From IMG/VR virus record IMGVR_UViG_3300044617_001255, positions 1 to 64,000 of that record: a stretch of 64,000 bases of DNA. One strand, written 5' to 3'. The stretch is from a virus. Shown here in pieces: positions 1,870 to 13,123 of the stretch; the stretch's first letter is position 1, and each line of letters begins with the position of its first letter. Both the position numbers and the translations under genes were made by a program. A model generated the notes under the pieces. The model ran no database searches, was not told the DNA's origin, and saw only the letters and a program-made list of their open reading frames with translations.

Positions 1870-2885
1870 GGCATATTCCTTTTGGATCTTTCAAGACGCA
1901 TTTGCCGTATTGTTCTTCTATCGTGAATAACTTTCTCTTCTTTTTTTTCAATTATTTGTTTTGACTGACTACCTAATATTTTTTCTCTGTATTCCTGTCT
2001 TTTTTTCTTTTCTTGAATTATTCTTTTTCTTAAAGAATTTCTTTTTTGCTCATCTATTGATGGTTCTTTAATTTTTACTATATTTTGTTTTTCTACACTA
2101 TCTCTTGGTTGTATTCTTACATTATTTTGTCTTTTTATTTCTCTTTTTATTCTTGGTATATTTGTTACATTTGATACAACATTTACCTTCATGGAACTTT
2201 GTATGCATTCATAATCATAAATATTTAGATCATAATCTTGAAGTTCAAATGTCTCTTGATTAAAGGCAGGAACAAATGATTCAAATACTGGTCCACATTT
2301 CCAAGAATACCACTCAAATCCACGTTTTAGAGCATATGGATACCATTCTTTTAATGTAGACTCTGCTTGATTTAAACTTTTTAAATAATTTGATGACTTT
2401 TTCTTATCATTATTATTCATTTCATATGCATATTTTTCATCTGGACTTTTTGCAGAAAGATCATTTCCTGCAAATATTAAAGTCTTGATTCCAAGATAAT
2501 GAAGAACTTGTATTGCAAATGTTATTGATTTATGTGGTCCACGAATAAAGTCACTATTTTGAGTAAACAAATCTGTTTCAAGATAATTTGTCTTGTTTGA
2601 TGTTCTATAATTGCAAACCACTATATTTGTATTTGAATTTCTTTCATTCTTATTTGATGGTATAAATTTTAGTATTTTAGAATTTTCGTTTGCTCTTTTG
2701 CCTTCTTCTCCATGCATATCATTCAATCTATCAGCATAAATCCATATATGTGGATTTGGAATATAACGAATTGCTGTGCTTATTGCAACCACAGGAAGTC
2801 CAAGACTGAATACATCTACGTTTCTAATAGATGGACCTGAACAGGCAACAACTGCTTTATCTATTGGGTAACATTTCTCGTTCAT
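1857..2885 (-). CDS. MptE/Maf-like (DUF115-type) sugar-transferase-related domain with basic coiled-coil tail
   Basis: VVACSGPS, VVAIS, AIQVLHYLGIKTLIFAGNDL pattern. Confidence 0.45.
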   Translation of the reverse strand: MNEKCYPIDKAVVACSGPSIRNVDVFSLGLPVVAISTAIRYIPNPHIWIYADRLNDMHGEEGKRANENSKILKFIPSNKNERNSNTNIVVCNYRTSNKTNYLETDLFTQNSDFIRGPHKSITFAIQVLHYLGIKTLIFAGNDLSAKSPDEKYAYEMNNNDKKKSSNYLKSLNQAESTLKEWYPYALKRGFEWYSWKCGPVFESFVPAFNQETFELQDYDLNIYDYECIQSSMKVNVVSNVTNIPRIKREIKRQNNVRIQPRDSVEKQNIVKIKEPSIDEQKRNSLRKRIIQEKKKRQEYREKILGSQSKQIIEKKEEKVIHDRRTIRQMRLERSKRNMPWQK

Positions 2886-3516
2886 ATTTTTTTATTGATT
2901 CATATAAATTTTTGACATGATCAATCGGATTCTCTTGGAATACATTCACACTTCCATCTTCGCATGACATCAATATTGCAACATTATTTATTTGAACACC
3001 AGTTCTCTCTTTACACATTATTGCATATGCCGTTGCTTGCATGAAATATTCCTTGATGTCAGAGTAATGCTTTTCTCTTGCTGCAGTTTTGAAATCTATT
3101 ACAGAAAGAACACCATTGTATTCTGCTATGCAATCTACTCTTCCTGCAAGACGAAGAGTAGATGACCACAAAGGCATTTCTTGACATCTTATGTTGTTTA
3201 TCTTATTAATTTCTGGAAGAATTTGTTGATATAACATTGATTCGTAGTATGAATATTTTTTTACATCTACTTCAGTATTATTCAAATAATCCTCTATCAT
3301 TTTATGAAAATTTGTTCCTCGCTTGACTGCTCTTTCTGCTCTTTCTGGATTATTCTTTCTCCATTCTGCAAAGAACTGTCTTTTTTCATAACCTGTTACA
3401 GAAGTTACAGAAGGATATAATTCCCCGGTAGGAATTTTATAAAAACGATTTCCGTTTGTTTCTTCTGTTATAAGATCTGGTTGCTTATCGAAAGGTACAT
3501 GTATAAATGAATGCAA
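2857..3516 (-). CDS. PD-(D/E)XK Cas4/Exo5-like exonuclease of T4-like phages
   Basis: YPSVTSV, RGTNFH, E-x-L-W, AGRVDCI, IDFKT, QATAY motifs; RBS AAGGAG before TTG start. Confidence 0.85.
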   Translation of the reverse strand: MHSFIHVPFDKQPDLITEETNGNRFYKIPTGELYPSVTSVTGYEKRQFFAEWRKNNPERAERAVKRGTNFHKMIEDYLNNTEVDVKKYSYYESMLYQQILPEINKINNIRCQEMPLWSSTLRLAGRVDCIAEYNGVLSVIDFKTAAREKHYSDIKEYFMQATAYAIMCKERTGVQINNVAILMSCEDGSVNVFQENPIDHVKNLYESIKKYEREMLPNR

Positions 3517-3549
3517 ATTTCACTCCTTACGTTTACAGTATGTATCTGT

Positions 3550-3586
3550 AAAAATAAAGATGGATTCGGATTTCTCCGAATCCATC
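3550..3586 (-). terminator. Intrinsic terminator of the small RNA
   Basis: Perfect 12-bp stem 3559-3570/3575-3586, GAAA tetraloop on - strand, followed by UUUAUUUUU. Confidence 0.85.
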
Positions 3587-3669
3587 CACTATAACGGTCA
3601 GAAGGTAGCGAAATTACTTGCCCGCATGAATGGCGTAATCGACGCCTCTCGGTAAGTGAATGTCTGACC
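3550..3669 (-). ncRNA. Candidate ~120-nt late small RNA antisense to host 23S rRNA H69-H70 and the flanks of H71
   Basis: + strand 3588-3620 matches 23S 1913-1945 (30/33) and 3621-3639 matches 1961-1979 (17/19, E. coli); bounded by late promoter and terminator on - strand. Confidence 0.8.
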
Positions 3670-3674
3670 ACATA

Positions 3675-3682
3675 TATTTATA
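3675..3682 (-). promoter_or_regulatory. T4-type late promoter TATAAATA
   Basis: TATTTATA on + strand; 5 nt upstream of the 5' stem of the small RNA. Confidence 0.75.
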
Positions 3683-3689
3683 TAATTTA

Positions 3690-3914
3690 TTATCTTGACC
3701 TACAAGAAATTCTTGCAGCCCTACGAAGATTTTCCTTATCTTCTGCGGGAATAATGACGATTTCTGGGGCTGTTTTATGATACCAGTCCATAAAGCCCTT
3801 ATAGGGCTTCACAGTTGAACATTTGACGCAAGTTGTGACGTTTGGAATGGCTTCAATACGACCTGCAGGAATGACAGTATTACACGACTCACAATGACGT
3901 TCAAAAACGCTCAT
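3690..3914 (-). CDS. TraR/DksA C4-type zinc-finger protein
   Basis: CESC..IPAGRIEAIP..TTCVKC pattern; lacks the N-terminal coiled coil. Confidence 0.75.
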   Translation of the reverse strand: MSVFERHCESCNTVIPAGRIEAIPNVTTCVKCSTVKPYKGFMDWYHKTAPEIVIIPAEDKENLRRAARISCRSR

Positions 3915-4955: not shown

Positions 4956-5029
4956 TAGCGCGAGTGGGATTCGAACCCACACATAAAAGCATTTTGAATA
5001 CTCCGACTCTGCCGTTGGTCTACCGCGCT
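4956..5029 (-). tRNA. tRNA-Leu(CAA), short variable arm
   Basis: Cloverleaf AGCGCGG/TCGCGCT, loop TTCAAAA, TTCGAAT T-loop. Confidence 0.75.
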
Positions 5030-5034
5030 TACAA

Positions 5035-5119
5035 TGGGAATGGTGGGAATCGAACCCACATGGTTTTTAAAACCGACAGATTTTAAGTCTGTTGCGTCTG
5101 CCTATTCCGCCACAGTCCC
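5035..5119 (-). tRNA. tRNA-Leu(TAA)
   Basis: Anticodon loop CTTAAAA, long variable arm, TTCGATT T-loop. Confidence 0.92.
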
Positions 5120-5130
5120 ATATTTAACAA

Positions 5131-5202
5131 AGCGGATGATCGGATTCGAACCGATGGCGATCTGCTTGGAAGGCAGACATTCTACCACTGAATTACACCC
5201 GC
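5131..5202 (-). tRNA. tRNA-Gly(TCC)
   Basis: GCGGGTG/CATCCGC, loop CTTCCAA. Confidence 0.92.
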
Positions 5203-5205
5203 AAG

Positions 5206-5279
5206 TACTCCCACTGGGAATCGAACCCAGAGTCTTCGCCTTGAAAGGGCGGTGATTTAGCCAGTTAATCTATGGGAGC
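5206..5279 (-). tRNA. tRNA-Glu(TTC)
   Basis: GCTCCCA/TGGGAGT, loop CTTTCAA. Confidence 0.92.
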
Positions 5280-7050: not shown

Positions 7051-7123
7051 CGCTCCTACCTGGATTCGAACCAGGAAGAACCGCTTAGAAGGCGGTGGGT
7101 TTATCCGATTAGCCTATAGGAGC
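7051..7123 (-). tRNA. tRNA-Arg(TCT)
   Basis: GCTCCTA/TAGGAGC, loop CTTCTAA. Confidence 0.92.
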
Positions 7124-12828: not shown

Positions 12829-12900
12829 AGCCACCTAAAGGATTTGAACCTTCAACCTATCGCTTACAAAGCGATGGCTCTGCCGTTGAGCTAAGGTGGC
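12829..12900 (-). tRNA. tRNA-Thr(TGT)
   Basis: GCCACCT/AGGTGGC, loop TTTGTAA. Confidence 0.92.
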
Positions 12901-12901
12901 A

Positions 12902-12974
12902 CTCTTTCGGCTGGGTTCGAACCAGCGACATTGGAGTTAACAGCTCCACGCTCTACCAACTGAGCTACGAAAGA
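12902..12974 (-). tRNA. tRNA-Asn(GTT)
   Basis: TCTTTCG/CGAAAGA, loop CTGTTAA. Confidence 0.92.
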
Positions 12975-12975
12975 A

Positions 12976-13046
12976 TTCCCTCGCATAGATTCGAACTATG
13001 AATAAGAGGTTCAAAGCCTCCTGTGTTACCGTTACACCACAAGGGA
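12976..13046 (-). tRNA. tRNA-Gln(TTG)
   Basis: TCCCTTG/CGAGGGA, loop CTTTGAA. Confidence 0.9.
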
Positions 13047-13050
13047 AAAA

Positions 13051-13123
13051 TGCCTCCTGTAGGGATCGAACCTACGACCAGCTGATTAAAAGTCGGCTGC
13101 TCTACCAACTGAGCTAAGGAGGC
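13051..13123 (-). tRNA. tRNA-Lys(TTT)
   Basis: GCCTCCT/AGGAGGC, loop CTTTTAA. Confidence 0.92.

Follow-up and report, generated by a model that had tools for sequence, protein, structure and literature searches.

Phages act on translation in their hosts through proteins and tRNAs. The small RNA locus of a T4-like phage analyzed here resembles, in different respects, several described classes of RNA. Trans-encoded base-pairing sRNAs share with it a stand-alone gene of ~100-120 nt, an unpaired complementary stretch and a Rho-independent terminator, but they target mRNA, whereas the predicted target of the phage RNA is mature-sequence 23S rRNA, with a complementarity of 35-100 nt that is split over segments. 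CopA/CopT, RNA I/RNA II and Sok/hok are likewise structured antisense RNAs with complementary loops or tails and a spread of pairing, predicted also for the phage RNA, to a longer duplex or junction; they control the mRNA or primer of their own replicon, whereas the phage RNA would be directed at a housekeeping RNA of the host. The snoRNAs U3, U8 and snR30 pair with rRNA segments that are due to pair later and thereby control folding, but they are eukaryotic and have proteins and box motifs, whereas the phage RNA lacks boxes and its expected effect is inhibitory. T4 rnaC and rnaD (species 1 and 2) are small non-coding RNAs of the T4 type encoded beside tRNA genes, but rnaD is processed from a tRNA transcript and shares only 8 nt with the family described here, which has a gene of its own. 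The closest documented precedent comes from H. pylori, in which an rRNA precursor is paired by an antisense RNA: a cis-encoded RNA is complementary to the leader of the 23S-5S precursor, and RNase III cleaves the duplex (Iost et al. 2019, PMC6582327). That RNA is host-encoded, acts in cis and is directed against a leader, in contrast to the phage RNA, which is phage-encoded, predicted to act in trans and complementary to the conserved core of domain IV.

As far as our searches reach, no virus-encoded RNA directed at host rRNA appears to have been described. Rfam 15 (gathering and E-value scans) returned only tRNAs and noise for six relatives and for the window, by which we mean the whole 64-kb stretch of phage DNA analyzed. 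Searches of the cultured phages in INPHARED by blastn gave no match for the window region, for 20 kb of the window or for two family members, and full-text literature searches found no description of a phage RNA antisense to 23S. The statement in the preliminary description of this locus that no such phage system had been reported thus holds for each of these sources.

Results

An rRNA-like stretch between two phage genes

The IMG/VR record from which the window was taken is 79 kb long, belongs to a T4-like phage and is ~44% complete. The RNA locus occupies the gap between two − strand genes (window 3517-3689; Table 1), and all of its neighboring genes are on the − strand. The same DksA/TraR-like upstream neighbor is present in two other loci of the family, L050 and L076.

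The top blastn match between E. coli 23S and the whole window placed + strand positions 3588-3620 on A1913-G1945 with 30 of 33 positions identical (E 3e-7), and a second match, of the E. coli 23S fragment against the window, covered 3624-3639 (15/16). Aligned by eye, window 3621-3639, which joins 3620 directly, corresponds to C1961-U1979 at 17 of 19 positions. The 15 nt of 23S skipped at the junction (1946-1960) are the H71 hairpin. Blastn and visual alignment therefore confirmed the two-block match that had been proposed, including the omission of H71. The remaining 23S matches across the 64 kb were 10-14-mers at noise level; complete rRNA operons compared with the 64-kb window revealed nothing rRNA-like outside 3588-3639, and a search of the phage record with an LSU rRNA model gave no match.

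The E. coli query was a 23S fragment (L083) in which A1913 is fragment position 285; it was used because the first E. coli reference (L082) had an assembly defect in the target region. Local rrl defects occur in these two RefSeq E. coli assemblies (L082:2490-2510 and L083:400-470), with a 4-nt loss in GGTCCTAAGG in one and an extra A plus a 23S/16S junction in the other, and such assemblies need care as rRNA references.

Nine − strand tRNA genes are also found in the window, in three clusters (4956-5279, 7051-7123 and 12829-13123) that lie 1.3-9 kb from the RNA gene. A 67-aa GTG-start ORF (3468-3671, −) that spans the RNA and the terminator was rejected as a coding sequence because family indels are not multiples of three; linker lengths among family members are 34, 36, 37, 54 and 58-62 nt.

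Table 1. Coordinates of the RNA gene, its predicted elements and the flanking genes in the 64-kb window.
Feature	Position	Strand	Basis or remark
Exonuclease, downstream neighbor	2857..3516	−	phrog_298, 3.9e-64
Intrinsic terminator, 13-bp stem, 4-nt loop, U-run	3550..3587	−	sequence signal
Small RNA gene, ~120 nt with terminator	3551..3671	−	promoter, terminator, conserved 5' end
Single-stranded tail GUUAUAGU, complement of H69 loop 1913-1920	3588..3595	−	unpaired in predicted fold
P1 3' strand UCUGACC	3596..3602	−	complement of 23S 1921-1927 save two bases opposite 1925-1926
Block B, complement of 23S 1928-1945	3603..3620	−	family comparison
Block A, complement of 23S 1961-1979 (H70 3' strand and H67 3' strand)	3621..3639	−	family comparison
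P4 hairpin GGCGU-CGAUU-ACGCC	3632..3646	−	in minimum-energy fold
P1 5' strand GGUCAGA	3663..3669	−	pairs with 3596-3602
T4-type late promoter motif TATAAATA	3675..3682	−	5-6 nt upstream of conserved RNA 5' end
DksA/TraR-like zinc-finger protein, upstream neighbor	3690..3914	−	phrog_54, 9.5e-9

Transcription signals and strand

The rRNA-antisense strand of every family member carries both a late-promoter motif and an intrinsic terminator. The promoter motif (TATAAATA, CTAAATA or TATACATA) stands at a fixed distance before the conserved 5' end, and the terminator stems covary freely across the family. In the window, TATAAATA occurs 12 times, compared with 4.5 copies expected. The conserved 5' end of the short-form relatives, GUGGU, was used to place the gene boundary, and transcription is predicted to start near G3671-G3669. 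Both signals lie at positions conserved in relatives and agree with the preliminary description, which had put forward transcription of the − strand from a late-type promoter to a terminator; the terminator and its U-tract stand as proposed, but the stem has 13 bp rather than 12. The phage RNA thus resembles trans-encoded sRNAs in having its own promoter and Rho-independent terminator, as judged from these signals.

On the + strand of the RNA locus, neither a promoter nor a T-run was found. Moreover, the non-terminator helices of the family, counted on the − strand, contain ~50 G-U cells compared with ~6 A-C cells, so that the rRNA-sense strand would lose the family helices. Together, the transcription signals and the G-U-rich covarying helices in relatives identify the − strand, which had been favored from the outset, as the functional RNA, and they speak decisively against an rRNA mimic.

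Members and forms of the family

The family was traced from loci with a neighboring exonuclease and then with a pattern joining the two best-conserved blocks. This two-block pattern detected ~45 loci in IMG/VR viral contigs, ~34 of which are distinct, and a metagenome scan added 19 further loci and one new subtype. The members are uncultured T4-like phages from freshwater and lakes. A pattern for the exact junction had no match in the viral contigs searched, a set that probably does not include the window's own record, and nhmmer found no RNA within the flanks searched in more distant exonuclease-bearing relatives (L010-L036).

The family members share a position upstream of an exonuclease gene: among the loci examined, 22 have the exonuclease downstream, a zinc-finger gene or gp32 lies upstream in relatives, and in L064 and L070 the RNA immediately precedes tRNA arrays. 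Because more than 50 related loci conserve the element, a chance match is excluded, and the rRNA complementarity, whose persistence in homologous loci had been named as a check on the proposal, is conserved in these loci.

The RNAs fall into two forms, a long form with a hairpin at the anti-H71 position and a short form, which includes the window RNA, with a 3-7-nt linker there. At L038:4743-5753 (−) and in its homologues, a long-form RNA directly follows gene 32 (ssDNA-binding protein, PF08804, 3.5e-49), and long-form loci have a late-type promoter between gene 32 and the RNA. A further short subtype (L206:976-1010, L208:4698-4732 and L214:11414-11448) is characterized by GGAGUUUCGCUACC and a distinct 5' arm, and the two changes that distinguish GGAGUUUCGCUACC from GGAACUUCGC both retain rRNA pairing by G-U wobble.

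Fold of the RNA

Folded as single sequences, the window RNA on the − strand has a z of −5.1 and the + strand a z of −6.4. Comparative analysis with RNAalifold and explicit counts of pairs supported a family-specific fold with covariation: 92.7% and 91.3% of the helix cells are paired in the two family alignments, and the observed covariation was reached by 0 of 500 shuffles.

In the short-form fold, the 5' end pairs with the complement of 23S 1918-1928, with compensatory changes; this helix (P1, helix 1 of alignment A2) is 97% paired and contains compensatory changes and many G-U pairs. All short-form members mismatch the rRNA at 1925-1926, and the same bases pair with the RNA's own 5' arm. 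In the long-form fold, P1 is formed by the 5' end with GGAAY of block B, and P3, the P4 hairpin and P2 are also present. P3 covaries, being G-C in nine long-form sequences and A-U in seven, and P4 reads AGCGU/ACGCU in long-form relatives, which makes the G-C pair of the window a compensatory change. Of the helices originally proposed, the fold-back GGUCAGA/UCUGACC and the hairpin GGCGU/ACGCC are both present in the minimum-energy fold and show covariation in relatives, but the third, AUUCACUUACC/GGCAAGUAAU, is specific to the window and absent from the − strand minimum-energy fold.

Two stretches suggested earlier to be single-stranded were also recovered as such. The sequence UUCGCUACC (anti-1929-1937) within block B is invariant and is unpaired in both family consensus folds, and the tail GUUAUAGU is free in the window fold. 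The window shares with four other short subtypes a free tail complementary to the H69 loop, located between P1 and the terminator; in those four, whose flanks differ, the related tail reads CAUAGU. The core of block A, AUUACGCYAUUCA, is also invariant in the family. The part of the RNA complementary to the H69 stem (the complement of the H69 3' strand) is locked in P1 and probably stays closed.

Positions complementary to 23S rRNA

Analysis per position revealed that complementarity to 1929-1943 and 1963-1981 is near 100% family-wide, and that complementarity to 1987-2013 is ~90% in long forms and in most short forms. In the long relatives, the anti-H71 hairpin is retained and complementarity extends to about nt 2013, whereas in short forms it stops at 1942-1943 and restarts at 1963. 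The family-wide constant target is both strands of H70 and the 3' strand of H67. These results modify the view of the RNA as an antisense of H69-H70 that bridges H71. The antisense relation and the bridging both stand for the window, but bridging is a derived feature of the short subfamily. Similarly, the window does have a tail complementary to the H69 loop, but the constant feature of the family is complementarity to 1929-1943 and 1963-1981, not to H69.

Conservation alone is no proof of pairing because the conserved islands of a captured antisense copy are complementary by default. The pattern of substitution is more informative. Most substitutions within the anti-1938-1943 segment retain pairing through G-U wobble (GGGAU, GGAGU and GGGAAU), and the one internal core change that disrupts pairing is found in the window, at 1942. 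The variants seen opposite 1980 (G or C), 1979, 1972 and 1918 have counterparts among natural rRNA variants. For example, the window C opposite 1972 and U opposite 1918 parallel the common G1972/A1918 rRNA type, GUCGUUACGC in L005 and L007 parallels the GUAACGAC rRNA type, and GUGAUU versus GUCAUU in phage RNAs parallels AAUCAC versus AAUGAC in Phycisphaerales 23S. Furthermore, complementarity persists while the flanking exonuclease has diverged to 40-59% identity and the flanking DNA is unalignable. Ongoing selection for rRNA pairing is therefore favored, from few independent events, by variants that change in step with rRNA, by wobble-preserving changes and by the precision of the match despite divergence of the flanks.

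Host lineage and cofolding with rRNA

Half of the family carries AACUUCGC, which requires G1938, whereas E. coli 23S has A1938. An exact scan for the G1938 variant in one genome per species (185,579 species) gave at least 120 matches, and the carriers among the matches listed were nearly all Planctomycetota (Phycisphaerales, Planctomycetaceae, Pirellulales, Gemmatales and Isosphaeraceae), plus some Patescibacteria. G1938 23S (GGUAGCGAAGUUCC) appears, among the matches listed (L084-L203), to be a signature of Planctomycetota and some Patescibacteria. A subgroup of Phycisphaerales additionally has GCGCAUGAAUAGCGUAAU(C/G)AC in its 23S, a feature mirrored in phage RNAs.

The long forms are 77-82% complementary to Phycisphaerales 23S over ~95-109 nt, compared with 71% for E. 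coli, and seeming phage inventions in the long forms proved to be the exact antisense of the 23S of the Phycisphaerales subgroup. Cofolding gave a similar picture. For the RNAs of L070 and L039, Phycisphaerales rRNA gave a net gain of approximately −73 kcal/mol and E. coli rRNA one of −48 to −54. The net gain for the window RNA was −36 to −43 with every rRNA tested, compared with −9 ± 3.5 for shuffles. At the level of sequence, the complementarity of the family is thus host-lineage-specific. The window RNA itself, as judged by cofolding, fits E. coli-type and Phycisphaerales-type rRNA equally well, so that the host of the window phage cannot be named from its RNA. We know of no cultured T4-like phage for Phycisphaerales.

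In the predicted complex of the window RNA with E. coli 23S, H71 stays a hairpin between two intermolecular helices; the duplex that the preliminary description had placed around H71 was thus reproduced, with pairing on both sides and H71 protruding. Like trans-encoded sRNAs, the phage RNA has a conserved, accessible stretch complementary to its predicted target, given that UUCGCUACC is unpaired and that the cofold gain is far beyond that of shuffles.

An 8-mer shared with T4 rnaD

T4 rnaD (L223:2054-2172, −; AF158101 71053-71171), a stable T4 RNA of unknown function that adjoins tRNA-Arg, contains UCGCUACC, an 8-mer invariant in the anti-23S family. The rnaD hairpin bearing it, CCGG-GUCGCUA-CCGG, is invariant in seven divergent homologues, and a second 8-mer, AAGGAAUU (anti-1938-1945), is present in T4 only among rnaD homologues. 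The chance of UCGCUACC occurring in rnaC plus rnaD, taken together, is ~0.004. In nhmmer searches, both family profiles gave no match to rnaC or rnaD at E ≤ 100, and with no detectable homology the link between rnaD and the anti-23S family is only a hint.

Discussion

From these comparisons we infer a transcript that would bind rRNA with consequences for the ribosome. The phage probably base-pairs with host rRNA. In our preferred explanation, which we advance tentatively and with slightly less than even confidence, the locus encodes an independent small RNA of ~120 nt, of a family that descends from host 23S domain IV and stays complementary to it, and this RNA most likely acts in trans by pairing with 23S outside the mature 70S ribosome.

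The constant target, H70 and the 3' strand of H67, is among the last parts of the 50S subunit to dock, according to assembly studies. Because this region is paired and buried in mature 50S and docks late, we favor nascent or assembling 23S, or else free 50S, as the binding partner over 23S locked in mature 70S. First contact would be made by the unpaired, invariant UUCGCUACC and, in the window phage, also by the tail GUUAUAGU. Pairing could then extend to both strands of H70 and the 3' strand of H67, leaving H71 as the third arm of a junction. The H67-H71 interface region would thereby be kept from folding, and the subunit would be unable to mature or to join 30S. Several considerations weigh against this explanation. 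The RNA's own helices tie up much of block A and some of block B, and the burial and base-pairing of the target in mature 50S mean that binding requires unfolded rRNA. In addition, what a phage would gain from disabling ribosomes late in infection is not obvious, and since complementarity is automatic in antisense-derived islands, it is the host-tracking and wobble patterns alone, from few events, that argue for pairing.

A broader proposal, which we regard as somewhat more speculative, is that aquatic phages of several lineages carry host-lineage-matched "anti-ribosome" RNAs that hybridize to the H69-H72 core and decide the fate of the ribosome by blocking its assembly, triggering its recycling or shielding it. 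Such RNAs would form a new class of device for host takeover, to which T4 rnaD might possibly belong. This proposal draws on the coincidence of the target with the point where cells start 23S decay, the RNase E cut after nt 1942.

This same coincidence underlies the next explanation, that the antisense RNA triggers destruction of host 23S, either by exposing or guiding the decay site or through cleavage of the duplex by RNase III, so that its nucleotides could enter phage DNA synthesis. Decay of E. coli 23S, during starvation as well as in quality control, begins with a single RNase E cut after residue 1942 (PMC4931109), and the end of short-form complementarity at 1942-1943, with resumption at 1963, would place this site at the edge of the duplex; the H. 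pylori antisense RNA, whose duplex with pre-rRNA is cut by RNase III, provides a precedent for the second route (PMC6582327). We nevertheless consider destruction unlikely. The long forms cover 1942 within the duplex, the RNase E site is known for E. coli only, and ribosomes are still needed late in infection. A search for RNase III (PF00636) found no match in five partial phage genomes (43-60% complete), so that the host enzyme would be required.

The opposite role, protection, is improbable. In this case the RNA would cover the single-stranded 1929-1943 stretch of free or damaged 50S against ssRNA endonucleases that inactivate ribosomes there, in RNase E-initiated decay or as MazF-type abortive-infection toxins, or would serve as a repair splint. 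Two cleavage sites fall within the invariant core, that of RNase E after 1942 and UUCCU in H70; Schifano and colleagues reportedly found in 2013 that MazF-mt6 cleaves this UUCCU site. Phage tRNAs have been proposed as a counter to tRNA-cleaving defenses, and the position of the RNA directly before tRNA arrays in L064 and L070 would fit a protective function. However, unwinding of H70 into a heteroduplex should inactivate the 50S subunit, so that protection would have to be transient, and the window RNA mismatches the rRNA at 1942. Nor was an Rnl2-type RNA ligase (PF09414) matched in the five partial genomes (43-60% complete).

A further explanation, to which we assign a similarly low probability, dispenses with rRNA pairing. 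An inverted rrl fragment captured once may have been exapted as a scaffold for an unrelated purpose, such as protein binding, with complementarity as a by-product. The RNA has a fold of its own with innovations that lower complementarity (P3, P4, P2 and a variable H71-like hairpin), and default complementarity is what the conserved islands of a captured copy would show. In contrast, a scaffold would not explain that unpaired positions vary in step with natural rRNA variants, that most core substitutions preserve wobble pairing, or that lineage-specific complementarity is retained despite divergence of the flanking proteins to ~55% identity.

It is very improbable that the + strand is the functional one, serving as a mimic of rRNA or as a decoy for an H69-H71-binding protein or toxin, even though this strand folds well as a single sequence (z = −6.4). 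It has no promoter or T-run and opposes the direction of all neighboring genes, the ~50 G-U cells become A-C mismatches on it, and the rRNA fold is not reproduced, since it lacks the H69 5' strand and has H71 deleted or altered. A sense-strand mimic comparable to ribosomal-protein leader mimics was rejected on the same grounds, the signals and the G-U pairs being on the opposite strand and the H69 5' strand missing. Finally, the reading of the locus as a non-functional relic, chance match or assembly contaminant, which only the short match length in the window taken by itself would suggest, is refuted by comparative data (promoter, terminator and covarying helices conserved in more than 50 syntenic loci) and has a negligible probability.

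Three known classes of element were also considered and rejected. A modification guide, one of the functions raised in the preliminary description, found no support, in that conserved C/D or H/ACA boxes are absent from the family. With respect to C/D-box guides, there is no C box (RUGAUGA), and the CUGA (D-box sequence) that follows the guide-like stretch in the window is replaced in relatives by UAGA, UCGA, ACGA or nothing. In H/ACA guides, a hairpin pocket leaves 2 target nt unpaired and an ACA box stands 3 nt from the 3' end; in the phage RNA, by comparison, the looped-out target (H71) measures ~15-19 nt, an ACA box is lacking and the RNA ends in a terminator. A homing-endonuclease site of the I-CeuI type in rrl, which we take to be ~26 bp long and located around 1923, does not fit either, because the site is missing from the long forms, which end opposite G1929, and all short forms differ from it at 1925-1926.

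If our preferred explanation is true, base-pairing of a phage RNA with host rRNA would represent a new mode of host takeover or counter-defense, and it would reveal which segments of rRNA an antisense RNA can reach in vivo, a matter of interest for antisense antibacterials. The anti-23S family also suggests an idea for the function of T4 rnaD that is testable in a model phage. Lastly, clade-specific rRNA bases, which here point to Phycisphaerales, could serve as a sequence-readable marker of the host for uncultured phages.
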